From: Candidatus Magasanikbacteria bacterium CG1_02_32_51
GTDB lineage: Bacteria > Patescibacteriota > Patescibacteriia > Magasanikbacterales > UBA922
Assembly (NCBI GenBank): GCA_001871435.1
Contig: MNVC01000019.1
Span: 218-64,217 of the forward strand
Reading direction: 5' to 3'
DNA: 64,000 bases
Every line of letters starts with the position of its first letter. Position 1 is the first letter of the stretch. The notes under the pieces are model-generated. The model was not told the origin of the DNA. It searched no databases and worked only from the letters and a program-made list of their open reading frames with translations. The translations under genes and the position numbers were made by a program. Shown here one piece after another: positions 2,306 to 61,171 of this stretch.

Positions 2306-2309
2306 TTTT

Positions 2310-3767: not shown

Positions 3768-3793
3768 AACTTTTTTGAAAAACATGCTATAAT
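3765..3793 (+). promoter_or_regulatory. extended -10 promoter (TGcTATAAT) only 9 nt before the ATG of the M23 peptidase gene; possible leaderless or near-leaderless mRNA
   Basis: TG at 3785-3786, TATAAT at 3788-3793, ATG at 3803. Confidence 0.35.
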
Positions 3794-3802
3794 AGTTTTA
3801 CT

Positions 3803-31169: not shown

Positions 31170-31571
31170 TCAGTTCTTAGACACAGGCTTGTACGAGGAG
31201 TGATGATGGACGATTTTCCACTCATCCTCAGCCATTCTCTTGGCAAGGAAAGTGAAGCGAGCTTCTACAACCAGTTGTCCATCGTGGGTGGAAAAATCGT
31301 AGAACCCAGCGAGGAGAACAATCTCTTCACCAAACTCCTGAACGACCAATTCTCTAATAATTCCTCGCGGACTACTAGGCATGAAGTCCTCCTGGAAGTA
31401 CTCCAAGGCACCACTCACACCCCTCTTGAGATCACCCGACATAGTTGGTAGAAAAGTGGCATCATCCGCGTACAACGCGGCGATGACATTTGGTTCATCA
31501 CTATGTAAGGCCTCAAGCCATTTATCTAGGTACTTGTGCATTTTGCCACCTTTCTCAGAAGTAAATACCAA
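31170..31571 (-). CDS. NTF2-like/SnoaL-like small protein (DUF4440 or SgcJ/EcaC-type) on a GC-rich foreign-looking cassette
   Basis: 133 aa; about 50% GC coding sequence against a 28% GC genome; fold assigned from its pattern of hydrophobic and acidic residues. Confidence 0.5.
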   Translation of the reverse strand: MVFTSEKGGKMHKYLDKWLEALHSDEPNVIAALYADDATFLPTMSGDLKRGVSGALEYFQEDFMPSSPRGIIRELVVQEFGEEIVLLAGFYDFSTHDGQLVVEARFTFLAKRMAEDEWKIVHHHSSYKPVSKN

Positions 31572-31760: not shown

Positions 31761-33329
31761 TTATAAATCATTTCCAGTATATGACAAATTAAAACTTTTA
31801 TTAATCAAAGGAAAATCAGGCACCACATTATGAACCCCTGCATGTCCAAGTAAAGACCAATTTATAAAGGAAGGATCACGTGGTGCGACTCTCTCAATAA
31901 TACCATCAGCATCTGTAGTAACAAAATAAAGTATCTCTCCACGCCAACCCTCGACTACACTTATAGCAACAGCATTTTTTTTGAACGGAGAAATATTTTT
32001 TGCACAAATAAGTCCATCGGGTAATATTTTTAGAGCGTCTTTAATAATTTTTATTGATGCATAGACTTCTTTGATGCGAACATAAAATCTAGCATATGCA
32101 TCCCCACTTTGTTCGATTGCAATTTTATCAAGTTCCAATTCATCATAAGCCGCATAAGGGAAATCAACTCGCGCGTCATCAGTGATACCAACTGCTTTTG
32201 CGACAATCCCTGTTGCACTATGTTCTATGATAGTCTCTAGTGACAATTCACCAGTACCTTTGAGACGATTTAGGAGTGATGAACTATTTTCAGCAATATG
32301 AATAATTTCATTAAAATCTTTTAGTATAGAAGTAAGCTCTTCGGATAATTTTTCCTTTTCTCTATTTTCTATGTCCTTGGAGATTCCACCACAAACATTG
32401 ATTCCACGCAAGAACCTGTTTCCTGTCAACCGCTCATTGATTTGCATAATCATTTCTCGTAACCGTGCGCTGTGTGCACCACCAAAATTAAATCCAGTAT
32501 CAAGCATCATGGCACCAATGTCGCCAAAATGATTGGCTAATCGTTCAAGTTCCGCATATATAACACGCAAATAAGTAGCTCGTTTCGGTGGTATGGTGTC
32601 TGATAGTTGTTCTAGAGCCTGACAAAATGCCAATGAATGACTAAATGAACTGTCTCCAGAGATTTTTTCAGAAAGACGGATTTTTTCATTAAGTGCCAAA
32701 GTTTCAAATAATTTTTCACTGCCTTTATGGGTAAATCCAAGACGAGATTCAAGTAAAACTATTTCTTCACCCGCAACGCTAAATCGAAAATGACCAGGTT
32801 CAATAATGCCGGCATGGATTGGACCAACTGGAATTTCATATATTCCTTCACCATCAACTTTTTGAAATTGATATGTTCCGCTTGCTTCTTGTGGTCTGTT
32901 ATTCCAATCAAAATCCTTTCGGAGTGGATAAATATCTGTTGGCCAATTCTCATGAAGAATAATCCCTCGTGAATCCTGATGACCAACTGGATCTAGTCCA
33001 AAAAATGTTTTGATTTTTCTTTCATAATTCCAGGCATTATGAATAAGAGGCGAAAGTGATGGAAATTGTTCAGTATTTTTTAATTCAATAAATGGGATAA
33101 TAAATCCATGTTCGTGAGGTATCCCAAAGACATACCAGATCTTAAAACATCCATTTTCTTTTCTCTCATCAGTTGCCGTAATGAATTTAAGTTGAAGATT
33201 TTTATTATTTCGTAAGTCAGAAGCGAATGCAAGTATATTGGAAACAGAAACTTCAAAAATAACAACATTTTCATAAATAGTTAATTTTTCCTTTCCAGAA
33301 AAATATTGTTTTATTTTTTCTATGTTCAT
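31761..33329 (-). CDS. fused NuoC-NuoD-like / group 4 [NiFe]-hydrogenase large-subunit homolog lacking all Ni-Fe-ligating cysteines
   Basis: PVGPIHAGIIEPGHFRF and LGFTHKGSEKLFE match large-subunit motifs. The N-terminal L1 position reads KISGDSSFSHSLAF (canonical RxCGxCxxxH) and the C-terminal reads RDPSFINWS (canonical DPCxxCxxH). Confidence 0.7.
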   Translation of the reverse strand: MNIEKIKQYFSGKEKLTIYENVVIFEVSVSNILAFASDLRNNKNLQLKFITATDERKENGCFKIWYVFGIPHEHGFIIPFIELKNTEQFPSLSPLIHNAWNYERKIKTFFGLDPVGHQDSRGIILHENWPTDIYPLRKDFDWNNRPQEASGTYQFQKVDGEGIYEIPVGPIHAGIIEPGHFRFSVAGEEIVLLESRLGFTHKGSEKLFETLALNEKIRLSEKISGDSSFSHSLAFCQALEQLSDTIPPKRATYLRVIYAELERLANHFGDIGAMMLDTGFNFGGAHSARLREMIMQINERLTGNRFLRGINVCGGISKDIENREKEKLSEELTSILKDFNEIIHIAENSSSLLNRLKGTGELSLETIIEHSATGIVAKAVGITDDARVDFPYAAYDELELDKIAIEQSGDAYARFYVRIKEVYASIKIIKDALKILPDGLICAKNISPFKKNAVAISVVEGWRGEILYFVTTDADGIIERVAPRDPSFINWSLLGHAGVHNVVPDFPLINKSFNLSYTGNDL

Positions 33330-33330
33330 A

Positions 33331-34776
33331 TTACTTATAGTATAAAGTGGCGTTATGGATTAATACCTGCAAAAATGGTGGCTGATAAAAACTCAAAACT
33401 AACACCAGAATAAGAAGTATTAGAGGAGGAAGAATGAGCCAAATACTTTCTTTTTCTTGTTTCATTTCAGACGGTTTTTCTCCAAAAACCATAGCAGAAG
33501 CGTGTTTAAAAAATCCAATAAAAACAATAGCAGTAAGCAAAATTGCCGTAATGCCAATGACTGGATGTGTAGTAATTCCGGCAGAAAAAGTAAACAATTT
33601 AGTAAGAAATATCCCAAAAGGCGGTGCGCCGGTAATAGCAAAAAATCCAATCAAAAATAATATACTGGTTATTGGTAATGCCTTGAGTGCACCTTTGACA
33701 TTAGCAATTTTTGCTGAATGATATTTGAGTAAAAAATTTCCTGACAAGAAAAAGAGAGCAGATTTAGTTAAAGAATGATAAATAGTATGAAGGATAGCTG
33801 CCATGACACCTAGCCCGCCAAACCCAAATCCAAGCGCAATAATTCCCATGTTTTCAATACTTGAATAGGCAAGCAAACGCTTGTAACTTTTTTGACTAAG
33901 AATAATGAGAGCGGAGATTAGAATTGAAAATGTACCAAAAACAATAAGCAAAGTCTGAGAAAAAGATTGACCAATCACAGAGTCAGTAATAATTTTAAAT
34001 TTTAAGACAATAACAAGTGCGACATTAAGTAATACTCCAGACAAAAGTGCGCTGATTGGTGCTGGGGCTTTGCTATGGGCATCAGGTAACCAGGTATGCA
34101 TCGGAGCAAGTCCAACTTTCGTTCCATAACCAATCAACACAAAAACAAAAGCTATTTTGGCAAGTAAGGGATCCATATGAATGGCATTTGTGGTGAGCAT
34201 ATGCCAACTAATAAACCCATTTCCAAGTGAGGGATCAATAGAAGTAAAATACAAAAGTGTACCAAAAAATCCCAACAGTAAACCGATAGAATTGATAATC
34301 AAGTATTTCCAAGCTGCCTCCATGGCTGAAGATTTGTTATAAAAACTAATAAGAAAAGCAGTGGAAAGTGTGGTTGCTTCAATAGCAATCCATGCAAAAA
34401 TTGGACTACTTGATGAAATAGCTAGAAACATTGCCCCTAAGAACAGATTAAGTAAAGTAAAATACTGTTTGACGCGGGTAAATCCGATAATATTATTAGC
34501 GGTTTCTTTTCTCAAATAAGGAATGGAATAAGCGACTGTGGCAAACCCGACACAGGAAATAATCAGCATCAATAAAGCACCAAGTGCATCAACGGAAAAA
34601 AATGCAAATGGAGAATAGTCTCCCGAGAGAGCAACCTTGAAAGCAACCACAAATGACTCTATAAGTGCAACTGCTGAGGCACTAATTGAAACACATTCAA
34701 CAGTAATACGATGTTTTGCTAGAATTGCGATCAAAGATGCGATCACTAATGATGAAATGATAATAATAAATTCCAT
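33331..34776 (-). CDS. NuoM/NuoN/MrpD-like proton-pumping antiporter subunit
   Basis: About 14 TM helices in a complex I antiporter-like pattern. Confidence 0.65.
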   Translation of the reverse strand: MEFIIIISSLVIASLIAILAKHRITVECVSISASAVALIESFVVAFKVALSGDYSPFAFFSVDALGALLMLIISCVGFATVAYSIPYLRKETANNIIGFTRVKQYFTLLNLFLGAMFLAISSSSPIFAWIAIEATTLSTAFLISFYNKSSAMEAAWKYLIINSIGLLLGFFGTLLYFTSIDPSLGNGFISWHMLTTNAIHMDPLLAKIAFVFVLIGYGTKVGLAPMHTWLPDAHSKAPAPISALLSGVLLNVALVIVLKFKIITDSVIGQSFSQTLLIVFGTFSILISALIILSQKSYKRLLAYSSIENMGIIALGFGFGGLGVMAAILHTIYHSLTKSALFFLSGNFLLKYHSAKIANVKGALKALPITSILFLIGFFAITGAPPFGIFLTKLFTFSAGITTHPVIGITAILLTAIVFIGFFKHASAMVFGEKPSEMKQEKESIWLILPPLILLILVLVLSFYQPPFLQVLIHNATLYYK

Positions 34777-34780
34777 AGTA

Positions 34781-35428
34781 TTAGTCTTTTAAATGTTTCA
34801 TGGTGCTGGTATCAAGCGATCCAAAATGTCGATAAATCATGGAAATAAAGACAGTAGAAATCACCAACCAAATAAAAATATCAAATATAATGCCAAATTG
34901 AAGCATAGGTGATTGTTCGAGGCCGGCAAAAATTGCAAAGGCAACGATACTATTTTCTAGAGAAAGAATTCCAACAGCTTGTGAAAGAGCGTCTTTACGG
35001 TTGATGACCAAGAAAAGAGAAATAAAAATTGCTGAAAGCGCAAGTGATAATAAGGCTTGATGAGCCGGAATAATATTCGTGAGAGATAAGAATTTTTGAG
35101 AGTGCGCAATGGCGGTAAATCCAGCAAGAACGATGAGTGTGAGTGGCAAATTCAAATAAGTACTTACTGAAAATGTTAATTTATGTTTTTGAATCAACCT
35201 GAAAAAAAATACTGACGCCAAAATAACTTTGATAACCAGTGTCACTAAAACTACAAAAAGAAGAAAAAAGCTATTTGTTTCTAAAAAAGAAGTAAACAAT
35301 ATCAATGTGATAATCAAAGATTGAATACTATACGCAATAACAGCTCCAAAATTTTTCTTTGCGAGATGCAAATAAAAAATAGATAAAAATAATATCCCAA
35401 GTAGAAACTGTAAGAAAAATATGTTCAT
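34781..35428 (-). CDS. HyfE-like small membrane subunit (NuoK-like repeats)
   Basis: 215 aa, multi-TM; GILSLENSIVAFAIFAGLE resembles NuoK/HyfE. Confidence 0.4.
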   Translation of the reverse strand: MNIFFLQFLLGILFLSIFYLHLAKKNFGAVIAYSIQSLIITLILFTSFLETNSFFLLFVVLVTLVIKVILASVFFFRLIQKHKLTFSVSTYLNLPLTLIVLAGFTAIAHSQKFLSLTNIIPAHQALLSLALSAIFISLFLVINRKDALSQAVGILSLENSIVAFAIFAGLEQSPMLQFGIIFDIFIWLVISTVFISMIYRHFGSLDTSTMKHLKD

Positions 35429-36390
35429 AGTATTTGCATTTGAATAAGACCGATTGCTAGTGCGCTCAAAATAAGAGAAGTAATTAATAAGTCAGGCAAT
35501 CTAAAAAATCTAAACTTGGCCATAGTAGATTCAATAATTCCGACTATAGCGCACAAAATAAATATTTTTATAAGAAGAATAATAATACCTATAACAATCG
35601 CTTGTGTATCAACACTATGGGCGATACCATAAGGGAAAAACAAATTTGCTCCTAAGGCTGCAAAAATAAAAAATTTATTGGCCGCCGCCCATTCCATTAA
35701 CGCCAATCTTTTACCTGAATATTCCAAAATCATCGCTTCATGAATCATAGTTAATTCTAAATGAGTCGCTGGATTATCAAAAGGGAATCTTCCTGTTTCA
35801 GCAAGTAACACAATAAAAAATCCAATAAAGGCTAATATCGTAGACAAAAAGAATTGAGTACTTAGTAACATTCCAGCGTTTGAAATTACAAAAAGATTAG
35901 TGGTGCCAATACTGAGCGCAGTCGTAAAAAGAGCTAGAATAAGACCTCCTTCAGCCAGCGCTGAAATAGTCATTTCTCGACTAGAGCCAAATCCACCAAA
36001 CGCGCTTCCTGTGTCCATGCCCGCAAGTGCTAGAAAAAATGTACCCAATGCAAGCGTATAGACAACGACTAAGAGATCACCAGTTAGTGTATTTTTTAAA
36101 AAAGAAGCAAAAAGTGGAATACTTGCTCCAATAACAATAGTGGTAGCAAAAATAATAAATGGCGCAAAACGAAAGACCCATGACGCGTCAGTACTTATTA
36201 CTTCATCTTTATGCAAAAGTTTCCATATGTCTTTGTATGGTTGAAAAATACTTGCTCCAACACGATTTTGAAGTTTCGCTTTTATTTTTTTTATGATGCC
36301 CATACACAATGGCGATAGTGCTGGCACACAGATGAGTTGTAATATCCAAATAAAAATCATCATATAGTTATTACGATAAAAATAGAGCAA
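35425..36390 (-). CDS. NuoH/HycD-like membrane subunit
   Basis: KAKLQNRVGASIFQPYKDIWKLLHKDE matches the NuoH N-terminal signature. Confidence 0.7.
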   Translation of the reverse strand: MLYFYRNNYMMIFIWILQLICVPALSPLCMGIIKKIKAKLQNRVGASIFQPYKDIWKLLHKDEVISTDASWVFRFAPFIIFATTIVIGASIPLFASFLKNTLTGDLLVVVYTLALGTFFLALAGMDTGSAFGGFGSSREMTISALAEGGLILALFTTALSIGTTNLFVISNAGMLLSTQFFLSTILAFIGFFIVLLAETGRFPFDNPATHLELTMIHEAMILEYSGKRLALMEWAAANKFFIFAALGANLFFPYGIAHSVDTQAIVIGIIILLIKIFILCAIVGIIESTMAKFRFFRLPDLLITSLILSALAIGLIQMQIL

Positions 36391-38416
36391 TTGCTACCGC
36401 GATTAAGATATAGAAAACATACATATTGATACTCCCACTTTGGATCGCTTTGGCACGCACTGATAGTGTGGTAATAAATTTATTGAGTGGTAGATAAAAA
36501 TATAATCGATAAATATCTCGTGTACGCAGTGTCACAGTTCTAGATTTTGGAAAATATCTTATTTTGGAATCACGATATTCAATTTCATTTTGAATACTTG
36601 GCCGAAGGATACCCGCAAAAATAAGAATAATTGAACGAGCAAACCCAGTAGCAGTAATTTCCATACGCGGTGTAAGATTAGTGCCACAGTCCCATGTCGC
36701 ACCGATTTTAGTTTTTTGATTTCTATTGATAACAAATTTGACGAGTAGTACGACAATGAACAGTGCAAGAATAAGGAAAACAATCAGTGCTAGAGCAGAG
36801 ACCGATCCAAAATTATTTGGTGCAATAAAATTAATTTTGGAAGATAAAATAGGTGGCAATGAAATATTGCGAAATACAGTGAGATGGGTACCAATATTTA
36901 TAAATAAAGATCCTAAATATCCTGAAAATATACCAAACAAAAGACAGCATAATGCTAGAGCTCCCATTCCTATAAGTTGTGAAAGTGAGGATTCTTTTGC
37001 ATGAGCTACTTCTGTGCTTCTTGGACGAGCCAAAAATGTCGCACCAAAAGCTTTTACAAAACAAGCTAAAGCAAGTCCACCCGTTATGGCCAGAGCGCCG
37101 GTTGCTAATACAAAAGTAGATTTTACAAGTATATTGACAGATGTCATTCCTTGTAAAAGTGTTTGAAAAGTCAACCACTCACTAAAAAAACCATTGAATG
37201 GTGGCAAGGCTGATATTGCCATAGAACCAACAAGAAAAAAGAATGCTGTTTGAGGCATATATTTAATCAATCCACCATATGCTTCCATGTTGCGTGTATG
37301 TGTTTGGTTGATAACTGATCCGGCACTCAAAAACAACAAGGACTTAAAGGTTGCATGATTGAGGGTGTGAAAAAGAGCAGCCCCAAGACCAAAAAGCGCA
37401 AGTAGTGTGTTACCAAGTGATATAAAAACAAGTGCACTACCAAACCCCAATAAAATAATTCCGATATTTTCAATACTATGATAGGCCAAAAGTTTTTTTA
37501 TATCGTGTTCAGTAAGCGCGTAGAGAACTCCAAGTAAAGCTGATAATGAACCAATAATCAGAATAGTAATTCCCCACCATAAAGGGATTGGTTGGAGTAT
37601 ATCCAAAAAAAGTCTAATCATCATATAAATTCCAGTTTTTATCATTACTCCAGACATAAGCGCTGAGACATGCGAAGGAGCTGCTGGATGAGCTACTGGA
37701 AGCCAAATATGAAATGGAATAATACCAGCTTTAGTTCCAAATCCAATAAGGGCTAAGATAAAGATAGTATTTTTGATAAATACAGGAATAGCAACGGCTT
37801 GGGCTTGGATTGATTCAAAATCAAAAGAGTTTGTAAATTTATACATGAGCAAAAATGCTAAGATTATAAAGGCGGTACCCACATGTGTCATAACGAGGTA
37901 GAGAAATCCTGCCTTGGTATTATTCACATCATTATGATCATACACAACGAGAAAATATGATGCGATAGACATTATTTCCCATGCAATCAAAAAGAAAAGT
38001 CCGTTTGAAGCTGTTACTACCATGAGCATACCTATGATGAATAAATGATAAAAAAATCCAAGTGCACTAATGCTATATTTTTTATAATAATGTTTGATAT
38101 ATCCAATTCCGTATAATGAACAAAAAAGAGTAATAAGAGAAATCACAAAAATAAAAAAGGCAGACAGCTGATCAATATGGAACGAAAAAGAAAGAAGCGG
38201 AAAAACTGATGAATAAGCCACAAAAGATAAATTACCAGTAAAAAAAGCACTTATCGAAAAAAATATTCCCCACAAAGAACCGATGATTGCAAAGAAACTC
38301 TGCCATCCATTTGCCAATTCGTCTTTTTTTCTAAAAAACAAAGATCCAATTGCTCCCAAAGAATACAGCAAAAGTAATAAAAAAAATCCTGACTCAGTTG
38401 TTAAAAGGTTTACCAT
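36371..38416 (-). CDS. NuoL/HyfB-like antiporter subunit (long)
   Basis: 681 aa with about 16-18 TM helices; MrpA/NuoL-type. Confidence 0.65.
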   Translation of the reverse strand: MVNLLTTESGFFLLLLLYSLGAIGSLFFRKKDELANGWQSFFAIIGSLWGIFFSISAFFTGNLSFVAYSSVFPLLSFSFHIDQLSAFFIFVISLITLFCSLYGIGYIKHYYKKYSISALGFFYHLFIIGMLMVVTASNGLFFLIAWEIMSIASYFLVVYDHNDVNNTKAGFLYLVMTHVGTAFIILAFLLMYKFTNSFDFESIQAQAVAIPVFIKNTIFILALIGFGTKAGIIPFHIWLPVAHPAAPSHVSALMSGVMIKTGIYMMIRLFLDILQPIPLWWGITILIIGSLSALLGVLYALTEHDIKKLLAYHSIENIGIILLGFGSALVFISLGNTLLALFGLGAALFHTLNHATFKSLLFLSAGSVINQTHTRNMEAYGGLIKYMPQTAFFFLVGSMAISALPPFNGFFSEWLTFQTLLQGMTSVNILVKSTFVLATGALAITGGLALACFVKAFGATFLARPRSTEVAHAKESSLSQLIGMGALALCCLLFGIFSGYLGSLFINIGTHLTVFRNISLPPILSSKINFIAPNNFGSVSALALIVFLILALFIVVLLVKFVINRNQKTKIGATWDCGTNLTPRMEITATGFARSIILIFAGILRPSIQNEIEYRDSKIRYFPKSRTVTLRTRDIYRLYFYLPLNKFITTLSVRAKAIQSGSINMYVFYILIAVAIALFLS

Positions 38417-38417
38417 A

Positions 38418-38960
38418 TTATTTTAATTTTGTTTGTTTGCTATCCACCGTCTCAAGAATATTAAGAAGACCATAGAGAATCATTTTTGGTGATGGTGGAT
38501 CTCCAGGGATGCAATAGTTCACGGGCACTACAGTCTCAACTCCATCTAATACTGCATATGAACCCTTATATATACCACCATTTATTGCATCATCACCGAC
38601 TGCGACGACAATTTTTGGATCAGGTGTTGCCTCATAGGCACTTTGTACAGCTTTCGCCATATTTCGTGTCATTGGTCCAGTTATCAAAAGCATATCAGCA
38701 TGTCTTGGTGAGGCAACAAAATGAATACCAAAACGTTCAATATCATAAAAACTATTGGACAATGCAACCATTTCTTGTTCGCACGCGTTATCAGATCCAG
38801 CATCAATCTGTCTAATAGCTAAAGATCCTTTAAATAACTTCTTTACTTTATCTTGTATTTTTTCACCAATTTCAATAAAATCCATTGATATAAAATCCTT
38901 TTTAGATAAGGAAATTACATTATTGGGTGTTTTAAATATTTTTAAAAAAAATTTAAACAT
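38418..38960 (-). CDS. NuoB/HycG-like small-subunit homolog retaining at most 2 of the 4 [4Fe-4S]-ligating cysteines
   Basis: ASPRHADMLLITGPMT is the NuoB signature. Canonical CCxxE reads NACEQE, GxCxxxGG reads GDDAINGG (no Cys), and CPP reads CIPGDPP. Confidence 0.7.
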   Translation of the reverse strand: MFKFFLKIFKTPNNVISLSKKDFISMDFIEIGEKIQDKVKKLFKGSLAIRQIDAGSDNACEQEMVALSNSFYDIERFGIHFVASPRHADMLLITGPMTRNMAKAVQSAYEATPDPKIVVAVGDDAINGGIYKGSYAVLDGVETVVPVNYCIPGDPPSPKMILYGLLNILETVDSKQTKLK

Positions 38961-39161
38961 ATAAATAAATTTATCTTTTTAATTCCGGTAAAACTAGAGA
39001 ATAATAAACCATGTCTTTTTATAAAAAATTAACTTATTTAAAGATATTTAAATTATATAATATGACATATTTTCTCACTAAACTCAATAAATGTCAATAT
39101 TAAGATATACATGCTAAAAACCTATTATTATAATCAAAAAAAATAGTTTTTATATTTATAT

Positions 39162-39584
39162 TTATTTTAATTTTCTGTATTTGTTACCAACTCTTATTCT
39201 ATTCATCTCTTTATCAATAAGAGCTTGAAGTCTAGCAAAGTCAACATCTTCACCAGCCTTAGCTTTGATCATTTCCTCTTCAGCTCTCTTGCGAGCTTCC
39301 TGTGCACGTTCAACATCAATAGTGTCAGCTCTTTCTACTTTATCAGCCAAGACAACTATTTTATTTTCATCTTGTATTTCCAAGAATCCACCCGCTACAG
39401 CATAAGGATGTTCACCATCTTTATCAATAATTTTCAATTCTCCAACAGCCAAAACAGAAACCATAGGGATATGACTGGGTAATACTGTAATCTCTCCGCT
39501 AGTTGTTGGAATACTAACTTGGTATATTTCATTTTCATATACCAATCTTTCTGGAGTAACTATTTTGAAATTGATCATAATCAA
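39162..39584 (-). CDS. atpC: F1 ATP synthase epsilon subunit
   Basis: Beta-sandwich N-terminus (KIVTPERLVYE...VSIPTTSGEITVLPSHIP) plus a helical C-terminus; position after atpD. Confidence 0.8.
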   Translation of the reverse strand: MIMINFKIVTPERLVYENEIYQVSIPTTSGEITVLPSHIPMVSVLAVGELKIIDKDGEHPYAVAGGFLEIQDENKIVVLADKVERADTIDVERAQEARKRAEEEMIKAKAGEDVDFARLQALIDKEMNRIRVGNKYRKLK

Positions 39585-39598
39585 AACTTAGGATACTT

Positions 39599-41026
<1,428 letters not shown>

Positions 41027-41056
41027 TTAAGTTTATTTATTAATTTAGATAATAAA

Positions 41057-42022
41057 TTAACCCAAAGTTGCAGCTCCACCAGCAATTTCAGCAATTTCTT
41101 GGGTAATACCTGCTTGTCTAGTTTTATTATAAGTAAGATTTAATTCTTTTATCATATCACTAGCTGAATCCCCGGCATTTTTCATAGCCATCATACGAGC
41201 ACTATGTTCACTAGCTGAACTTTCCAAAAGTGATTGATAAATTTGCATTTCAACTAATCTTGGTAAAATTGTTTTCAATACTTCTTTTTTACTTGGTTCA
41301 AATAGATATTCACTTATTTTTTCTTGTGGTTCCTTACTCAAAGTTCTATTAAGCAAATTTTCATTTTTACCAAGGCCACTAATTGTCTTCTCCAAGTCAA
41401 ATTCAGAAATTGGTAATACTTGTCTTATTTTAGCTTCTTGAGAAACTACTGAACGATAATCTGTATAAGCCACTACGACTTTATCATATTTTTTTGTTTT
41501 GTAATCTTCTATTACTATTTGAGTAGCTACCAAGACATCTTCTAATTGAGGTTTATCAGAAATACTATTGAAAGAAGCAATTAAATTATAACCATTCTTT
41601 TTACAAAAATCTGCACCTTTACGACCAATACCAATCACATCGATTTCTACATGTTCACTTGGTTGAGTATGTTTGTTATGAGCACGTTGAAAACTAATAT
41701 TTCTAGGATTTTTTAATTGGATTGCAGTTTTTTTGATAATATTAGAGTTAAAACTTCCGCACAAACCACGATTGGAAGTAATAAGAATTACCAACATTCT
41801 TTTTACTTGTCTTATTTCCAGCAAAGGTATTCCTTCTTTTTCAGTTTTTGATAAATTTATGAGCAAATCCCAAGCAATAGTAGCATAAATTCTAGTATCC
41901 AAAGCAGCTGAAACTGCTTTACGCATTTTTGCAGCTGAAACCATTTCCATAGCCTTGGTTATTTTTTTGGTGTTGGAAACTGATTTTATTCTAGTTTTGA
42001 TTACTTTTCCAGAAACTGCCAT
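41057..42022 (-). CDS. atpG: F1 ATP synthase gamma subunit
   Basis: Conserved N- and C-terminal helices (MAVSGKVIKTRIKSV...AGGAATLG); operon position. Confidence 0.85.
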   Translation of the reverse strand: MAVSGKVIKTRIKSVSNTKKITKAMEMVSAAKMRKAVSAALDTRIYATIAWDLLINLSKTEKEGIPLLEIRQVKRMLVILITSNRGLCGSFNSNIIKKTAIQLKNPRNISFQRAHNKHTQPSEHVEIDVIGIGRKGADFCKKNGYNLIASFNSISDKPQLEDVLVATQIVIEDYKTKKYDKVVVAYTDYRSVVSQEAKIRQVLPISEFDLEKTISGLGKNENLLNRTLSKEPQEKISEYLFEPSKKEVLKTILPRLVEMQIYQSLLESSASEHSARMMAMKNAGDSASDMIKELNLTYNKTRQAGITQEIAEIAGGAATLG

Positions 42023-42054
42023 AATATTATTTTACAAAAAAGTTAAATTAGTAT

Positions 42055-42132
42055 GGATACGAAATACGAAAGGTACAAAATTACGAAAGTATTCCGCAAT
42101 TCGTATGTTCGTAAATTTCGTATTTCGTATCC
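42055..42132. repeat. nested palindromic array of a 7-mer (atacgaa / ttcgtat) in the atpA-atpG spacer
   Basis: ggatacgaaatacgaaa ... tttcgtatttcgtatcc form a perfect 17-bp inverted repeat, with inner ttacgaa / ttcgtat copies. Confidence 0.6.
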
Positions 42133-42142
42133 CTTGTATCAT

Positions 42143-43636
42143 TTATTTTATTTTAACAAAATCCTCACAAGCTTCTTTCAAATCTGCAATAATATTATCA
42201 TCCCACTCCCCTTTTCTAATTTTTCCTAACAATGATTGTCTACTAACTTTTACAAAATCCAAAAACTTTTTTTCCATTTCAGTCATATCTACAATAGCAA
42301 CATCATCAAAATAGCCATTGTCTACAGCAAAGATAGCAACTACTTGATCTTCTATTTCCATTGGACTATATTGTGGTTGTTTCATAAGTTCTACTACACG
42401 AGCACCTCTATCCAATTGTTTTTTTGTTTCTACATCAAGATCACTGGCAAATTGAGCAAAAGCTTCAAGTTCACGATATTGTGCCAAAGCCAACTTGATT
42501 TTTCCAGAAACTTTTTTCATTGGTTTGGTTTGAGCTGCCCCACCAACACGAGAGACTGAAATACCAATATTTAAAGCTGGGCGAATACCTTTGTAAAACA
42601 AATCAGTCTCTAGGAAAATTTGACCATCAGTAATTGAAATTACATTGGTAGGAATATAAGCAGTTACATCCCCTGCTTGTGTTTCAATAATAGGCAAAGC
42701 AGTGATAGATCCACCACCGTGTTCTTTGTTAAGATTACAAGCACGTTCCAAAAGACGGGAGTGAAGATAAAAAACATCTCCAGGATAAGCTTCACGACCT
42801 GGTGGACGTCTAAGAAGAAGTGAAATTTCACGATAAGCCCAAGCTTGTTTAGTAAGATCATCATAGACAATAAGTACATCTTGACCTTTGTCAGCAAAAT
42901 ATTCAGCCATAGATACTCCAGCATAAGGAGCAATAAAAGACATAGCAGCAGGATCAGAAGCGCCAGCCACTATGATGGTAGTATATTCCATAGCCCCATT
43001 TTCTTCCAACTTTGCTACAAGACGAGCTACTTTTGATTCTTTTTGTCCAATAGCAACGTAGATACATTTCATGTTTTTGCCTTTTTGATTGATAATAGCA
43101 TCAATAGCAATTGCAGTTTTACCAGTTTGACGATCACCAATAATAAGTTCACGTTGTCCACGACCAATTGGAATCATGGCATCAATAGCTTTGATACCAG
43201 TTTGGACTGGCTCAGACACCGGTTGACGACTCATCACGCCAGGAGCAACTTTTTCTACAGGATAAAAATCTTTGGTATTCACTTCACCTTTGCCATCAAT
43301 AGGCTGACCTAAAGCATTTAATACTCTACCTATTACTTGTTCACCTACTGGTACTGACAAAATTCTTCCTGTTCTTTTTACAGTGTCACCCTCTTTTATT
43401 TTTTCATAATCACCCAAAATCATAACACCTACAGTTTCTTCTTCCAAATTCAAAGCTACACCCATAATACCACCTGGAAATTCCAGCATTTCTTGAGATT
43501 GACACTTAGTCAAACCATTTATGCGTGCAATACCATCCCCTACTTCAATAACATTACCAACTTCTTCTACTTCCACAGTTTTTTGAAAAGCAGAAATATG
43601 TTTCTTTAGTTCTTCGATTACTTGATTTGTAGACAT
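42143..43636 (-). CDS. atpA: F1 ATP synthase alpha subunit
   Basis: [10 protein letters not shown]-loop; 497 aa. Confidence 0.95.
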
Positions 43637-43649
43637 ATATTTTTCGATA

Positions 43650-43680
43650 ATCTTGAGCGGAGTGAAAGATCTGTAGACCC
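43650..43680 (-). promoter_or_regulatory. start-codon-abutting GC hairpin motif (member 4), upstream of atpA
   Basis: In mRNA sense: gggucuacagaucuuucacuccgcucaagau, 13 nt before the ATG. gggtctacagatc also occurs at 14816-14829 and, as a variant, at the window end. Confidence 0.45.
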
Positions 43681-43751
43681 TTCGAACGCTTCTTTTTATT
43701 TAAATGTTTTAATTTATTTAATAAATAGAAATAATACATTATTAACTCCAT

Positions 43752-44138
43752 TTATGTAGTTAAACTTTTCTTCAAATTAATCAACTGCATTCTCACACTT
43801 GCATCCAAAATTCTATCTTCCAATTTGACTCTTACCCCACCAATCAGACTTTCATCTATTTTTTCCACAGCTTCAACTTGCTTGGCAAAAGATTCTTTTA
43901 TTTTTTCTACAATATCTTTGTCAAGTTTTCTAGCGGATGTAATTTCTATTTCAATTATTCCTTGTTTTTTCTTAGCAATTTTTTCAAATTCTACAATAAT
44001 ATTGTTACCTTGTTTTAATCTTCTATTTTTTGATAAAAATTTTACAAAAGCCTCTAGTGTTGTATCAAGATCTTTTTCAACCAAACCAATCGTCAATTCA
44101 TATAAGGCTTCTGCAAATTGTCTATTAGAAATTTTCAT
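43752..44138 (-). CDS. atpH: F1 ATP synthase delta (OSCP) subunit, short form
   Basis: 128 aa; its position between atpF and atpA, plus helical N-terminal domain (AEALYELTIG). Confidence 0.55.
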   Translation of the reverse strand: MKISNRQFAEALYELTIGLVEKDLDTTLEAFVKFLSKNRRLKQGNNIIVEFEKIAKKKQGIIEIEITSARKLDKDIVEKIKESFAKQVEAVEKIDESLIGGVRVKLEDRILDASVRMQLINLKKSLTT

Positions 44139-44148
44139 ATATTTATGT

Positions 44149-44177
44149 CATCCCGAGAGAAGCGAGGGATCTTTCCC
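44149..44177 (-). promoter_or_regulatory. start-codon-abutting GC hairpin motif (member 5), upstream of atpH
   Basis: In mRNA sense: gggaaagaucccucgcuucucucgggaugac, 10 nt before the ATG. Confidence 0.45.
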
Positions 44178-44234
44178 AGCAATGTCTCAGTCTAAATAAT
44201 TAAACTTTCAATTGATTCTAAAAGTCGTTTAAAA

Positions 44235-44783
44235 TTATTTCTTTAACTCTTTCAGACTATCTTCTATTATTTTTTTATCAATTTTGCCATCCATTTTTTC
44301 ATTTAAGATTTTTTCTAACACAGAAACAATAAGAGTAGCTGATTCTTGTCTAATTTCTTCCATCATTTGTACTTTTTCTGTCTGAATACTTTTTTTGGCT
44401 TGAGTTACAATAGCCTCTACATCAGTTTTGGCTTTATTTTTCATATCTTCACCAAGTTGTTTACCTTCACTATGAGCTTTTTCAATGACTTTATTAGCTT
44501 CACCTTTGGCTTCTTTCAATTTGTCTTGATATTCTTTTTCACCCAAAGCAAGATTTGTTTCAATTTCTTTGGCATTATCTATACTTTCATCAATCATTTT
44601 TTTACGTTCTTCCAATTTCTTGGTCAATGGTTTCAAAATCAAAAACCAAAGAATAATAGCCACAATTATAAAATTGACAAGTTGAAATACAAACAATTGA
44701 GTATTAAGACCCAAAGATGCTGGCAAACTTTCTTCGTTAATAATAGCTTGATTTTGAGTATTTAGTACATTTATTTCAGCCAT
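44235..44783 (-). CDS. atpF: Fo ATP synthase subunit b
   Basis: Single N-terminal TM followed by a long charged helix (EERKKMIDESIDNAKE...). Confidence 0.7.
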   Translation of the reverse strand: MAEINVLNTQNQAIINEESLPASLGLNTQLFVFQLVNFIIVAIILWFLILKPLTKKLEERKKMIDESIDNAKEIETNLALGEKEYQDKLKEAKGEANKVIEKAHSEGKQLGEDMKNKAKTDVEAIVTQAKKSIQTEKVQMMEEIRQESATLIVSVLEKILNEKMDGKIDKKIIEDSLKELKK

Positions 44784-44856
44784 ATTTTATTTTAATATTT
44801 TTTAAAAAATAAACTTCTAAAACCAAACCTGCTAAACAGATTTGGTAAATAGCAAT

Positions 44857-45108
<252 letters not shown>

Positions 45109-45225
45109 CTATTTTGACGACTGGAGTTGATTTTTTAAGTCGTAAAGTAAGCATCTTTTAATTATTAAGTGATCTTTCGATCTTTTGAACTTCAAATTAT
45201 TGAAATCCATCAAGATTAAAACATC

Positions 45226-46023
45226 TTAATTTTGATGACTCTCTTCCTCACCATGTGGTACAGAGGTAGCTACAGTCAAATATACTAAAGTAAGCATAGA
45301 AAATACTGCTGCTTGTATTACACCAACCAGTAATTCCAACAACATAAATGGCGCAGGAACAATAGCAACTACTAGAGCAGAAATCACTGAAATCAAAACT
45401 TCACCAGCAAAAATATTACCAAAAAGACGAAGAGAAAGTGAAATAACTTTGGCAATTTCAGAAATTATTTCTAATAAACCAACACCAAATTCAATAATGG
45501 CTGTGAGTACGGCCATTGGACCTTTTTTGAAACTTTTGAAAACATTTTTGATTTGAACAAATTTTCCTAAATGGGTAAATATACCAATAGTAGCAAAAGC
45601 ATAAAGATGAGAGCCAATTACTGATATAAGAGCCATAACCAAAGTAAGATTGAGATCAGTGTTGGCAGGACGAAGTAACATATTTTCGCCAATATGAATG
45701 CTTCCAGTACCTGGCAAAAGACCCAACCAATTTGATAACAAAATAAAAAAGAAAATAGCACCAACAATAGGCAAAAATCTAATAGTCTTTTTATGATCTC
45801 CAGTAACTTGATCAAAATATCCCAAAATCAATTCCAAAAAAAATTCACAAGCATTTTGTAATTTTCCTGGTTTCAATTTTACACTTCTTTTTATAGAGAT
45901 TCCCAAAATCAAAAAAATAATAATAGCAATCCACACATTTATTACAGTATTTGTAACAGCAAGATTACCAATGTGAAATATTGTCTCTGGGGCAAGTGTA
46001 GGAATGTGAATTTCTCCGGACAT
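45226..46023 (-). CDS. atpB: Fo ATP synthase subunit a
   Basis: Five or six TM helices; C-terminal LSLRLFGNIFAGE contains the conserved Arg. Confidence 0.8.
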   Translation of the reverse strand: MSGEIHIPTLAPETIFHIGNLAVTNTVINVWIAIIIFLILGISIKRSVKLKPGKLQNACEFFLELILGYFDQVTGDHKKTIRFLPIVGAIFFFILLSNWLGLLPGTGSIHIGENMLLRPANTDLNLTLVMALISVIGSHLYAFATIGIFTHLGKFVQIKNVFKSFKKGPMAVLTAIIEFGVGLLEIISEIAKVISLSLRLFGNIFAGEVLISVISALVVAIVPAPFMLLELLVGVIQAAVFSMLTLVYLTVATSVPHGEEESHQN

Positions 46024-46103
46024 AAAGATTATTTGTTTTGAAAATTCTTTGTAATTTTTTGTATTATTTTTCCAAAACGAGCCAACTGTCTAAGGACTAC
46101 AGA

Positions 46104-46436
46104 CTACTTTTTTTCTCTGTTGTCTGTTGACTGTTGTCTGTCGTCAAGTTTTTTATACTCTTCTCCAAATTGTTTTGCTTTTTTGTAAATCATCTTACCA
46201 GACAAAAGAGTTGCCAAGAAAAAAGCTGAAATCGTAAACCAAGGAGCATAACCATATTTATCTTCAAGCCACTGACCAATTAACACAAATACTACAATTG
46301 GTACAGCAATTATTGCCCCAAAGTCACCAATGATTCTCAATCCTAACATGATATATTGTCTATCTTTAGGATCCTCTGGTAAAAGTGACATAAAGTTATA
46401 AAGAATAATAGTTTGAAAAACGGTGCTATTATACAA
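46104..46436 (-). CDS. AtpZ/AtpI-like small membrane protein (ATP synthase gene 1)
   Basis: 110 aa with two TM helices, at the head of the atp operon. Confidence 0.4.
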   Translation of the reverse strand: MYNSTVFQTIILYNFMSLLPEDPKDRQYIMLGLRIIGDFGAIIAVPIVVFVLIGQWLEDKYGYAPWFTISAFFLATLLSGKMIYKKAKQFGEEYKKLDDRQQSTDNREKK

Positions 46437-50786: not shown

Positions 50787-52193
50787 ATGAAAAATACTTT
50801 AACTTATTTAGCTATAATTGTACTACTTCTACCACAAGTTTCTTTAGCTACAAGTTTCAACCCAAACAATATTATTAATGATGAGATTTTACAAAACAAA
50901 GATGCTATGGATCTTTTTGATATACAAGCTTTTTTGCAAGAAAAGAATAGTTCCTTGGCAAATTTTGTGACAGAATTTCAAGATGGGACAAATAGAAAAG
51001 CCTCTTACATAATATACAACTCAGCCCAACAATATAATATAAATCCAAAATATTTATTAGTTAAACTACAAAAAGAACAAAGTCTAGTTACAGAAACAAA
51101 TCCTAGTCAAAAACAGTTAGATTGGGCAACAGGCTTTGGTGTTTGCGATGCCTGTAGCAAAGATGACTTAGACATACAAGATTACAAAGGTTTTAACAAC
51201 CAAGTAGAAAGTGCCGCAGCAGTAATGAGAAGCTACTACAACAAAGTAAACACCCAAACTTGGATAAAAAAAGCAGGCCAAACTTACAATATAGATGGTG
51301 AAAATATAACACCAATGAACAATGCCACCGCCTTTTTATATACTTACACCCCACATTTACATGGCAATGAAAATTTTTGGACTATCTGGCAAGCTTGGTT
51401 TGTACAAAGTTACCCGGATGGCACCTTAGCAAAAACTAAAGATGATGCAACTATTTATTTGATCCAAGATGGTAAAAAAAGAAAAATTTCTAATATGACT
51501 TCTTTAATTACCCGCTTTAATCCTAAATTAATCATAACAATTCCTCAAACAGAAATTAATAAATTAGAATATGGTAATGAAATAAAATTACCAAATTATG
51601 CTATTGTAAAAGATGGTTTAGATTATTATTTATTAGATAATGAATACAAAAGAAAATTTACTAATTATGATGTAGTAAAACAAATTGGTTATAACCCAGA
51701 TGAAATTATTGACGTAACTAATTCTGATTTATCAGATTACACATTGGGAAAACCAATTACTCTAGAAGAAAAAAATATCACAGGTAGAGTGGTTAAATTA
51801 AAAACAGGAGATAGTCTATACTATATAAAAGGAAATACTTACTCCCCTATTCTAGACGAAAATACTGCCAAAATAAACTTTCCAAATCTAAAAATTGAAG
51901 ATGTAGAGGCAAATGAATTCTCTAATTTAACTAGTATAGACCCAATCATACCAAAAGATGGACATTTGATTGGTATACAAGGTAATCCAAATATTTATGT
52001 TATGGAAAATGGCAAAAAAAGACATATCATAGATGAAAAAACTTTTGATACTTATGGTTACAACTGGAGTAATATAGTCTGGATAGACTTCTTTGCTGGA
52101 TTAATAATTCCTAATGGAGAACCCTTGTATTTAATAGAACAAATTGATAATTTAGATACAGTTACTACCACAAGTAGCACAACAAATCTATAA
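50787..52193 (+). CDS. secreted hypothetical protein (signal peptide; possible cell-wall-associated)
   Basis: N-terminal signal peptide; no confident domain match. YNINPKYLLVKLQKEQSL weakly resembles lytic-transglycosylase-like segments. Confidence 0.35.
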   Translation: MKNTLTYLAIIVLLLPQVSLATSFNPNNIINDEILQNKDAMDLFDIQAFLQEKNSSLANFVTEFQDGTNRKASYIIYNSAQQYNINPKYLLVKLQKEQSLVTETNPSQKQLDWATGFGVCDACSKDDLDIQDYKGFNNQVESAAAVMRSYYNKVNTQTWIKKAGQTYNIDGENITPMNNATAFLYTYTPHLHGNENFWTIWQAWFVQSYPDGTLAKTKDDATIYLIQDGKKRKISNMTSLITRFNPKLIITIPQTEINKLEYGNEIKLPNYAIVKDGLDYYLLDNEYKRKFTNYDVVKQIGYNPDEIIDVTNSDLSDYTLGKPITLEEKNITGRVVKLKTGDSLYYIKGNTYSPILDENTAKINFPNLKIEDVEANEFSNLTSIDPIIPKDGHLIGIQGNPNIYVMENGKKRHIIDEKTFDTYGYNWSNIVWIDFFAGLIIPNGEPLYLIEQIDNLDTVTTTSSTTNL

Positions 52194-52202: not shown

Positions 52203-52994
52203 ATGCCAGTAGTATTTGCAACCATTACACCACATCCACCAATTTTAATAGAAGGCATTGGTAAAGGTAAAAAAAGTATTATCAATAAAACAGTAAATTC
52301 ACTTATTAAAATTGAAGAAGATTTATATATTAGTAAACCTGATGTTATTGTGGTGATTTCTCCACATAGTGATATTTTTGATAATGTTTTTTCTGTCAAT
52401 TTATGCGAAAATTTTGTTTCTAATTATGAAAAATTTGGAGATTTTTCTACTCAAAATTCCTGGACAGGAGAAATCATCTTGCCCTATATCCTAAAAGAAA
52501 AAGCTTATGAAAGAAATATACCAGTTCAACTTTTGACTGAACACAAATTAGATCATGGTACTTCAATACCTTTGGTGACCCTTGCCTCACATTTACAAAA
52601 TATAAAAATCTTACCAATTGGCAATGCCAACTTAGAGCCAAAATCACAATTGGAATTTGGACAATTATTATATGACATTTTTTCTAATTCTGAAAAACGT
52701 ATAGCCATAGTGGCTTCGGCTGATTTATCTCATTCTCTTAATAACAACTCACCAGCTGGCTTTCATAAAGCTGGCCAAGAATTTGATGAAAAAATAATAG
52801 AATTATTAGAAGCACACAATACTGTTGGTATTACCCAAATAGATAGTAAAATTATAAAAGATTCCAACCAATGTGGTTATAATTCTATATTAATTTTACT
52901 TGGCTGTCTCAAAAATATAAATTATACTTTCAAAAATTTATCCTATGAAACTGTGTTAGGCGTTGGTTACCTAACTGGTGAATTTATATTTTGA
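52203..52994 (+). CDS. class III extradiol dioxygenase subunit B-like / Memo-like protein (LigB/DODA superfamily)
   Basis: ITPHPPIL, VISPHSD and ASADLSHSL motifs match metal-binding regions of the superfamily. Confidence 0.45.
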   Translation: MPVVFATITPHPPILIEGIGKGKKSIINKTVNSLIKIEEDLYISKPDVIVVISPHSDIFDNVFSVNLCENFVSNYEKFGDFSTQNSWTGEIILPYILKEKAYERNIPVQLLTEHKLDHGTSIPLVTLASHLQNIKILPIGNANLEPKSQLEFGQLLYDIFSNSEKRIAIVASADLSHSLNNNSPAGFHKAGQEFDEKIIELLEAHNTVGITQIDSKIIKDSNQCGYNSILILLGCLKNINYTFKNLSYETVLGVGYLTGEFIF

Positions 52995-60592: not shown

Positions 60593-61171
60593 TTATTTAG
60601 ACTCATTCAAACTAAGTTCATAAACTACTTTTTCAATCTTTTGAGCAGCCATTTTGGCTTGATCAAACTTGTTACGCAAATAACTGGTGAGATTAAATTC
60701 TATAAGTTCTCCTGTGATTTCTTGTGCCATGTTAGTACATTGTTTTACTTTTTTCATATCTTTCTGCGTAGCTGACTTGATAGCATAACGATACAATTCT
60801 CCAGGTACATCACAAAGTCCACCAATATAGCTACGTTCTGGAATTGTTATATCTGCAATTTTTCCTATTTTTCCAGTAGTCAAAAATTGATAAAACAAAT
60901 TAGCTTCAACATACTCTTCAAGACCAGCTTTGAAAGAACCTTCTTCTTCAACTTCTCTATATTTATAATATTTCTTCAAAAGATTTTCCAATAATTTTTT
61001 ACTATTAAGCAATTTCTCTTCAGCTTCCTTCATATTGTCCCTGTGCATGGCAAAAATAGCCCTTTTGGCATTGTACAAGGCGTCATCTGATGATTTTATT
61101 ACTTCTCTTCTTACCTCAGCATACTGAAGCAAATTTTTTTTTATACTATTCAAATATTTTTTGTCCATCAT
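60593..61171 (-). CDS. translin-family-like protein (hypothetical)
   Basis: All-helical 192 aa; YIGGLCDVPGELYRYAI resembles the translin GEL-containing signature. Confidence 0.35.
   Translation of the reverse strand: MMDKKYLNSIKKNLLQYAEVRREVIKSSDDALYNAKRAIFAMHRDNMKEAEEKLLNSKKLLENLLKKYYKYREVEEEGSFKAGLEEYVEANLFYQFLTTGKIGKIADITIPERSYIGGLCDVPGELYRYAIKSATQKDMKKVKQCTNMAQEITGELIEFNLTSYLRNKFDQAKMAAQKIEKVVYELSLNESK

Follow-up and report, generated by a model that had tools for sequence, protein, structure and literature searches.

An Ehr complex predicted to lack redox cofactors, encoded beside the ATP synthase operon in a Candidatus Magasanikbacteria genome

What can a complex built like a membrane-bound hydrogenase do if its subunits no longer hold the cofactors of one? 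The question is raised by six genes in a stretch of 64,000 nucleotides (nt) from Candidatus Magasanikbacteria bacterium CG1_02_32_51 (assembly GCA_001871435.1, contig MNVC01000019.1, positions 218 to 64,217 of the forward strand; the whole stretch is called the window below). A preliminary description had read them as a redox-dead relative of complex I and group 4 hydrogenases, directly downstream of the ATP synthase operon. In the list of open reading frames (ORFs) of the window, six abutting or overlapping minus-strand ORFs span 31761-38960, and the ORF calls together with Pfam and NCBIfam matches agree with the co-directional, overlapping arrangement first described. We adopted the Ehr naming for these genes (ehrSABCDL), which are as follows (aa, amino acids):

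38418..38960, minus strand: ehrS, NuoB/HycG-like small subunit, 180 aa (Pfam PF01058, E=4e-25)
36371..38416, minus strand: ehrA, HyfB/HycC/NuoL-like antiporter-like subunit, 681 aa (NCBIfam HyfB, 671.5 bits)
35425..36390, minus strand: ehrB, HyfC/HycD/NuoH-like junction subunit, 321 aa, TTG start (PF00146, E=6e-46)
34781..35428, minus strand: ehrC, HyfE-like small membrane subunit, 215 aa (NCBIfam hydrogenase-4 membrane subunit, E=2e-11)
33331..34776, minus strand: ehrD, HyfF/MbhH/NuoN-like antiporter-like subunit, 481 aa (NCBIfam HyfF, E=2e-130)
31761..33329, minus strand: ehrL, fused NuoC-NuoD/HycE-like large subunit, 522 aa (PF00329 and PF00346)

Ehr (energy-converting/Ech hydrogenase-related) complexes were reportedly named by Coppi in 2005 and Marreiros et al. 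in 2013, the former for EhrABCDLS of Geobacter. The score of EhrA exceeds the HyfB cut-off of 667 bits. The C-terminal half of EhrC is weakly NuoK-like (Pfam Oxidored_q2, E=2e-4), and both EhrC matches lie below their cut-offs. The best solved relatives are HycE, HycG, HycC and HycD of the Escherichia coli formate hydrogenlyase (FHL), along with the Pyrococcus membrane-bound hydrogenase (MBH): EhrS matches HycG (7z0s_G, 6e-30) and MbhJ (6cfw_J, 7e-30), EhrA matches HycC (7z0s_C, 2e-83) and MrpA of the Mrp antiporter (PDB 7qru, 4e-42), EhrB matches HycD (7z0s_D, 1e-38), EhrD matches MbhH (6cfw_H, 1.5e-40) and EhrL matches HycE (7z0s_E, 2e-68). NuoD models score far under their NCBIfam cut-offs (208 vs 360). 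According to passages of PMC6349859 and PMC10284858, an Ehr cluster is group-4-hydrogenase-like and has a large subunit without NiFe motifs; these passages, like those of PMC7894505, give no established function for Ehr complexes so far. The window has such a large subunit, and it has the full set of HyfB, NuoH/HyfC, HyfE, HyfF, NuoC-NuoD fusion and NuoB-like subunits that is listed for the Margulisbacteria Ehr in PMC6349859 (Supplementary Note 4). Judging from these sequences, the module is almost certainly an Ehr complex of the type found in the Candidate Phyla Radiation (CPR)/Patescibacteria.

For comparison, a scan of a genome collection with EhrL yielded 74 loci and a metagenome scan with EhrS a further 80 (individual loci are cited by L numbers). 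The window groups with 129 of them at 49-81% identity, 49 being genome-derived (L001-L048, L055) and 80 metagenomic. The gene order is S-A-B-C-D-L, and no other, in 129/129 loci as far as the contigs extend.

The loss of the NiFe site is seen in the alignment of EhrL. KISGDSSFSH is the counterpart of RVCGICGFAH in HycE and RMCGICSFSH in MbhL, with both N-terminal NiFe cysteines changed to Ser; the C-terminal FNLSYTG (residues 513-519) is the counterpart of LDPCYSC in HycE, with Cys changed to Ser and Gly. The total substitution of the NiFe ligands claimed in the preliminary description therefore stands, but not its choice of RDPSFINWS as the former DPCxxC site: the true site is the terminal NLSYTG, and RDPSFINWS pairs with RAATYANW of HycE and RAPSFVNL of Nqo4, a motif common to the whole superfamily. 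Aligned residue by residue to HycE and MbhL, the canonical cysteines are absent and not merely shifted, and the backbone motifs GPIHAGIIEPGHFRF and LGFTHKGSEKLFE, said to be kept in the large subunit, are found there. Where group 4 [NiFe] hydrogenases carry the L1 (RxCGxCxxxH) and L2 (DPCxxCxxH/R) cysteines, the window protein reads KISGDSSFSH and NLSYTGNDL; the matching columns of hydrogenase loci L056-L070, L072 and L073 read R[IV]CGIC and DPCxxC (L074 spans the C-terminal motif only, and L071 is a NuoD-type sequence without hydrogenase motifs). EhrL, as aligned, is without all four NiFe cysteines. The quinone ligands of complex I are apparently not retained either. We take Tyr87 and His38 of Nqo4 to be the quinone ligands; as we read the alignment, the Tyr87 position pairs with G225 of EhrL and the His38 loop is of hydrogenase type (IIEPGH), with neither Tyr nor His at the aligned EhrL positions.

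The small subunit has lost the proximal [4Fe-4S] cluster (N2) as well. In the alignment CGGCNGCE of HycG and SCNGCD of MbhJ pair with AGSDNACE of EhrS, GACGNSGG pairs with GDDAINGG, and PGCPP pairs with PGDPP. The four cluster-ligand positions of EhrS are thus occupied by D57, C60, D124 and D154 in place of Cys. Two of the four cluster cysteines had been counted as kept, with CIPGDPP as one of the sites; the correct count is one of four, because PGCPP became PGDPP. The canonical Cys is Asp154, and Cys150 in CIPG is non-canonical, a position at which relatives vary (C/K/R/Q/G/S/A/H/N/E/Y). C60, the sole surviving canonical Cys, stands at a position that reads C/A/V/I/E across the family. HycG, MbhJ and hydrogenase loci L056-L073 show CxxC, GxC and PGCPP at the cluster positions (L062 and L072 are uncovered at PGCPP), whereas EhrS does not have the four proximal-cluster cysteines of a group 4 hydrogenase; at 180 aa it is also without a NuoI-like ferredoxin domain. 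We searched EhrS against 1.84 billion representatives and surveyed the best 150 representatives at 50% identity. All four Cys are present in ~95 of these 150, and at least three are missing in ~20, with polar or acidic but variable replacements. The Asp pattern of the window (DAGSDNAC, GDDAI, PGDPP) belongs to its own subclade. A conserved Asp-triad metal site in place of N2 was considered and ruled out, as the replacements vary (SEGD, NEGD, DAAD, DVES, TCGN and others); because of this variability we claim no defined metal site.

Electrons would also need a route into the complex. As first described, the window has no 2x[4Fe-4S] ferredoxin-like gene: a motif scan found no ORF with CxxCxxCxxxC in the 64 kb, and the Pfam matches outside the module are of housekeeping type. 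The same motif scan, which covered the genome-derived loci, found no such ORF inside the clusters of the 49 clade members. The cluster accordingly has no 2x[4Fe-4S] subunit of the HycF/HyfH/NuoI type, while all hydrogenase loci L056-L074 possess such an ORF, separate or fused; genes for NuoI, NuoA and NuoJ, expected of respiratory complex I, are not found in it. An electron-input or ferredoxin gene near the cluster was also considered and rejected, there being none in the window and none recurrent in the 129 loci; the Hdr-like genes of L007 and the iron-sulfur (FeS) ORFs of L006, L008 and L015 are lineage-specific neighbours. The 'redox-dead' reading of the preliminary description consequently holds beyond what it claimed, with NiFe ligands, N2 ligands and any NuoI/HycF gene or domain all missing. 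With neither ligand sites nor a carrier domain left, the six-subunit complex is predicted to be one that cannot carry electrons.

Is this a peculiarity of one genome or the property of a clade? An identical EhrL is encoded on contig DCOZ01000047.1 of GCA_002322575.1, and the nearest labelled relative is a Magasanikbacteria metagenome-assembled genome (MAG; L030) with an atpD identity of 96%. Among the top 120 homologues identity is 65-92%, and the source names, where given, mostly point to Patescibacteria lineages. In the 49 genome-derived loci the EhrL motifs E[KR]ISGDSSFSHS and C-terminal KSFNLSY[ST]GNDL are nearly invariant, the EhrS motifs read DAGS[D/S/N/T]NA[C/A/V/I/E]E, VGD[D/G]A and PG[D/N]PP, and every EhrS present has at most one Cys at the four cluster positions. 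Sister Ehr loci L049-L054 (Acidimicrobiia, Acidobacteriota, Clostridia, Methanomassiliicoccales) are 40-45% identical and have the same EhrL motifs. Their EhrS retains SCNGCE, GACxCSGG (GTCAISGG in L053) and PGCPP (uncovered in L052), and a ferredoxin-like motif or domain is found on EhrS in L049-L054 and in the second cluster of L027. In these FeS-containing loci the small-subunit gene comes last (A-B-C-D-L-S). The L049-L054 type agrees with the NuoB-NuoI fusion of the Margulisbacteria Ehr (PMC6349859, Supplementary Note 4), and a passage of the same paper describes such a fusion or a FeS-bearing small subunit for Firmicutes and archaeal Ehr also. EhrS of the window does not have this feature, which is a subtype marker and not one of the whole family. 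A neighbour-joining tree without support values places the window within a monophyletic FeS-less clade adjoining the FeS-containing Ehr, with some non-CPR labels nested inside. By this placement, the loss of N2 and NuoI, which is a clade property on the sequences compared, is a derived second step.

Two loci carry paired clusters. In L027:4368-19341 (+) and L016:53-15706 (+), from Negativicutes- and Fibrobacteria-labelled MAGs, the FeS-less Ehr lies beside a second, more distant one, which in L027 is 32-42% identical and has an EhrS with a fused 2x[4Fe-4S] domain. The pairing suggests an origin by duplication or a joint function. In L033, L035 and L149 an extra HyfF-like (ehrD) copy follows ehrL directly, as a third antiporter-like subunit.

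Part of this picture is already known. Passages of Jaffe et al. (2020) describe the CPR large subunits as a monophyletic Ehr subclade without NiFe cysteines that 'likely cannot interact with H2' (PMC7304191), and the window falls in a CPR-dominated clade of that kind; CPR Ehr and its NiFe loss are thus known from that source. The term 'ATP synthase' is absent from its main text, and its Ehr passages are silent on the small subunit and on FeS loss. No report of FeS loss or atp linkage of CPR Ehr came up in the other full-text literature searched. The fully cofactor-less character, with N2 and NuoI lost besides NiFe, and the integration with atp operons therefore appear to be new.

We then asked whether the subunits left without cofactors are decaying. 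Within the clade, columns with at least 95% identity make up 30% of EhrS, 30% of EhrB and 28% of EhrL, against 19% of EhrD, 18% of EhrA and 10% of EhrC. The most constrained parts are the cofactor-less arm and the NuoH-like junction, and since the columns of EhrS, EhrB and EhrL are among the most conserved, the 'dead' peripheral arm is not decaying. The channel residues of the membrane subunits, mapped by alignment onto HycC, MbhH and HycD, are conserved as well. EhrA has E147 (transmembrane helix (TM) 5), K229 (TM7), K260 (TM8), H350/H354/K358 (TM11) and E413 (TM12) at 95% conservation or more. Conserved residues in the other subunits are E133, K220, H227, H330 and K338 in EhrD, K67 and E158 in EhrC, and E139, E147, E198, D205, E212, E218, E223, E287 and R294 in EhrB, which has a full acidic set for the E-channel and loop. 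The ion translocation supposed in the preliminary description is plausible because these residues are conserved.

The other observation that bears on function is the neighbourhood. The module follows the F1Fo ATP synthase operon on the same strand, and the gap, first given as about 200 bp, measures 201 bp. The features are listed below (from the ORF list unless noted):

39162..46436, minus strand: F1Fo ATP synthase operon
46104-46436, minus strand: atpI-like (PF09527)
45226-46023, minus strand: atpB
44857-45090, minus strand: atpE
44235-44783, minus strand: atpF
43752-44138, minus strand: atpH, by its delta-subunit position in the operon
42143-43636, minus strand: atpA
41057-42022, minus strand: atpG
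39599-40975, minus strand: atpD
39162-39584, minus strand: atpC
38961..39161, minus strand: AT-rich atpC-ehrS spacer, 201 bp

The ORF at the atpH position, of only 128 aa, is short for a bacterial delta/OSCP subunit. No terminator-like hairpin was found on the minus strand of the 201-bp spacer. The c-subunit (...GIGLLVAKA...FAEAIAIY) is without the Gln / Glu-Ser-Thr Na+ signature, which is the motif of the Ilyobacter tartaricus c-subunit, and the c-subunit of L048 lacks it too; because the signature is absent, the c-ring is taken as H+ type. The idea that a Na+-type c-ring might hint at the ion specificity was rejected for the same reason, and the c-subunit offers no direct clue to the ion of the Ehr complex.

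To analyse the neighbours, the ORFs flanking the 129 loci were clustered all against all, and the atp genes of the window were used as BLAST queries. The atp genes stand beside ehr far more often than any others, so that the ATP synthase link first seen in one genome recurs among the relatives, in four arrangements. They occur in the flank of 21/72 dereplicated informative loci and lie upstream in ~11 of the ~51 loci with at least 3 kb of upstream sequence; by a rough estimate, a few percent would be expected by chance in a ~1-Mb genome. The order atpBEFHAGDC followed by ehr is seen in the window and in L012, L028, L030, L032, L036, L055, L078, L080-L082, L093, L111 and L114, and the atpC-ehrS gap is 50 nt or less in L028, L032, L092, L095, L111, L114 and L139. 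The Patescibacteria locus L031:14-13380 (+) is one 13.4-kb operon, atpBEFHAG-ehrSABCDL-atpDC, in which 5 and 24 nt separate the ehr genes from their atp neighbours, and in L034 ehrL is directly followed by atpD, which is partial evidence for ehr inside atp. In L048 ehr is followed by atpBEFHA after 81 nt, and in L026 and L110 ehr and atp are convergent. The atp-linked loci are scattered over the neighbour-joining tree. No redox partner gene is recurrent in the flanks of the 129 loci.

Some other neighbours recur in parts of the clade. L039 and L042-L046 carry, at ~1000-4200 (+), a ~700-aa Na+/H+ exchanger (PF00999) and a DedA/VTT protein just before ehrS; these loci are labelled Moranbacteria or 'Bdellovibrionales', and their EhrS cluster positions read S/N-E-G-D. 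A 69-aa XRE-type helix-turn-helix (HTH) protein (PF01381) is encoded directly upstream of ehrS in 13 loci (L083, L085, L088, L090, L096-L104; for example L101:9775-9993) and may be a dedicated ehr regulator. After ehrL, a CBS-domain protein and a CitMHS/ArsB-type permease are found in L030, L078, L081, L082 and L093 (for example L078:13824-15596). These are the closest relatives of the window, which differs downstream of ehrL, where a SnoaL/DUF4440-like gene (31170-31571, minus strand) is found together with an ABC exporter.

Several known systems share parts of this design. The best sequence matches for every subunit are in E. coli hydrogenase-4/FHL-2 (HyfABCDEFGHI) and FHL-1 (HycBCDEFG; PDB 7z0s), but the window lacks the NiFe ligands, the proximal cluster, all of the ferredoxins HyfA, HyfH, HycB and HycF, HyfD and a formate dehydrogenase partner. 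Ehr complexes have the same six subunit types as the window, and the FeS-containing loci share with it the derived motifs SGDSSFSH and NLSYSGNDL of EhrL; those loci, however, have a ferredoxin domain on EhrS and ehrS last, whereas the window clade has neither cluster ligands nor NuoI domain and has ehrS first. Mbx/MBS of Pyrococcus (PDB 6u8y) is likewise a group 4 hydrogenase derivative that lost NiFe and kept its membrane arm, and it is among the PDB matches of the module. MBS keeps FeS clusters and reduces polysulfide, and unlike the window Ehr it has a Mrp-type Na+ module. The Mrp Na+/H+ antiporter is redox-independent and is built, as Ehr is, from NuoL/M/N-like and NuoK-like subunits, but it has no NuoB/C/D/H homologues, and the window Ehr has no MrpB/E/F/G and no MrpA C-terminal domain. 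In place of the Mrp set (MrpA and D with B, C, E, F and G) there are two PF00361 subunits and the weakly NuoK/MrpC-like half of EhrC; the Pfam and NCBIfam models specific for MrpB/E/F/G gave no match to the six subunits, and the other scanned ORFs of the window are housekeeping only. Ehr is therefore likened to Mrp in its working, not in membership. Mitochondrial complex I in its deactive state functions as a Na+/H+ antiporter (Roberts and Hirst, 2012; PMC3464577), which means that an ion-transfer domain of complex-I architecture can work apart from redox chemistry, as is proposed here for Ehr; that state is reversible and occurs in a redox enzyme, while the disconnection in Ehr would be permanent and genetic.

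From the conserved channels and junction, which are under strong selection, we infer ion movement; its direction, the ion species and a functional coupling to F1Fo are inferred along with it. The complex is a six-subunit descendant of group 4 [NiFe] hydrogenases. Gone from it are the NiFe site, the [4Fe-4S] cluster of NuoB and the ferredoxin domain of NuoI type; it has retained, under strong purifying selection, a complete membrane arm (two antiporter-like subunits, one NuoH-like and one HyfE subunit), with the junction between peripheral arm and NuoH equally conserved. By analogy with Mrp or deactive complex I it may be a redox-independent H+/cation translocator working with an H+-type F1Fo, a reading that we hold tentatively, at a little short of an even chance. 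In a host cell without a respiratory chain and with an H+-type F1Fo ATPase as partner, the proton gradient from ATP hydrolysis might be used for Na+/K+ and pH homeostasis, or the exchange might run in the opposite direction; the peripheral arm, bare of cofactors, would then have a conformational role or act as a gate. The PF00999 Na+/H+ exchanger gene directly upstream of ehr in subclade L039-L046 is counted in favour of such a translocator. A number of points weigh against it. Some 70-80% of the related loci do not adjoin atp, and in the window itself the spacer holds a promoter-like TTGACA-17-GAAAAT at 39097-39069 (minus strand). The FeS-less type also occurs in bacteria outside the CPR whose metabolism is respiratory or redox-based (labelled Syntrophus, Negativicutes, Fibrobacteria and Ignavibacteria). 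EhrD of the window has Asn at the position of the MbhH TM8 Lys, and the subunits proposed as the Na+ path of Mrp and MBH (MrpB/E/F/G, MbhA-G) have no homologue here. A plain antiporter has no obvious need of a highly conserved NuoB/C/D-like arm.

The conserved arm and the tight linkage could be explained instead if Ehr were a regulatory, gating or scaffold partner of F1Fo, forming a controlled proton path or a physical supercomplex rather than an independent antiporter, through which H+ return or the H+/ATP economy might, for instance, be tuned. The embedding of ehr between atpG and atpD in the tight operon of L031, the atpC-ehrS gaps of 50 nt or less in seven loci and the position of the junction subunits as the most conserved parts all speak for it; with no precedent known, the majority of loci without atp linkage, and full Lys/Glu/His chains in two antiporter-like subunits that suggest active translocation, we regard it as a minor possibility. 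Another use for the arm would be non-redox chemistry or ligand binding at the former NiFe or N2 pocket, making Ehr a primary pump or a gradient-driven enzyme. DabAB and NDH-1MS/CupA are complex-I-type proton channels coupled to CO2 hydration, and NDH-1MS is a precedent for such coupling (PMC6981117); the likeness is one of analogy only, as the window Ehr has no carbonic-anhydrase-like subunit. The near invariance of SGDSSFSH and NLSYSGNDL in both FeS-less and FeS-containing Ehr, at ~40% overall identity, speaks for such a pocket, as do the conserved D226, H231, Y517 and D521 of EhrL, the clade-specific junction acids D62, E63 and D68 of EhrB, and Asp 57, 124 and 154 of EhrS in the subclade of the window. 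Changes from Cys to Ser or Gly are, however, typical isosteric fillers, and nothing in them can be recognised as a catalytic or metal site; in EhrS the replacements differ within the clade (D/S/N/E/T; C/A/V/E/I; D/G/E/A; D/N/S), and the flanks hold no conserved accessory enzyme gene, all of which makes pocket chemistry improbable.

It is very improbable that the complex is still a redox enzyme, whether through an unusual cluster held by Asp or other ligands or through a docked electron-input protein (hydrogenase, formate dehydrogenase or ferredoxin). In some proteins an FeS cluster does have an Asp ligand, Hdr-like FeS genes (judged by motif count and sequence appearance only) lie downstream in L007, and passages of PMC6349859 and PMC7894505 propose formate dehydrogenase as a partner of other Ehr. 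In the clade of the window at most one, unconserved Cys is left and the replacement residues vary; there is no NuoI domain, no redox neighbour recurs in the 129 loci, the residues at the Nqo4 quinone-ligand positions are not Tyr/His, and the other window genes are housekeeping only. The loss of all cofactor ligands might also be taken for the sign of a functionless, decaying relic of a hydrogenase operon. That reading is effectively refuted by conservation: the six ORFs are intact in the 129 loci save for cuts at contig ends and their order is fixed, identity is 50-92% across many CPR classes, and columns with 95% identity or more make up 18-30% of five subunits and 10% of the sixth, EhrC, the 'dead' subunits being among the most conserved. 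Beyond the translocator that we tentatively favour, a bolder version is conceivable, if doubtful, in which CPR-type Ehr would be a cofactor-free, obligate functional and perhaps physical partner of F1Fo, its arm having become a driver or gate operated by a cation or ligand, in bacteria that have no electron transport chain.

The rest of the window, at ~30% G+C, is of housekeeping type (tRNA synthetases, Mur ligases, MreBCD, penicillin-binding protein and the complete F1Fo operon) by Pfam scans that covered the larger ORFs, most of those of at least 90 aa; Rfam and tRNA scans gave nothing relevant. A Translin-family protein is encoded at 60593-61171 (minus strand; PF01997, E=3e-21) in this bacterial genome, the family being mainly eukaryotic and archaeal. 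Two ORFs have no Pfam match: one of 468 aa at 50787-52193 (plus strand), which is followed by a LigB/Memo-like gene (52203-52994), and one of 185 aa at 5066-5623 (plus strand).

CPR/Patescibacteria have no respiratory chain, yet many keep the F1Fo ATPase. On the question of how they energise their membranes, a widely conserved cofactor-less module lying next to atp operons or within them is a candidate as the missing partner of the ATPase, with ion homeostasis or gradient interconversion as its possible role. Public annotations name these proteins 'NADH-quinone oxidoreductase subunit C' or 'Ni,Fe-hydrogenase III large subunit' (homologue match table); both labels are functionally misleading, implying activities that the sequences cannot have. 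If the bolder version is true, Ehr and F1Fo would together be a minimal unit of energy conversion, 'ATP <-> H+ <-> cation', and the complex would be a natural experiment in complex-I-type long-range ion translocation without any redox chemistry. With an intact membrane arm and junction and no electrons, it may offer a clean system for the non-redox contribution of the NuoB/D/H junction to translocation.

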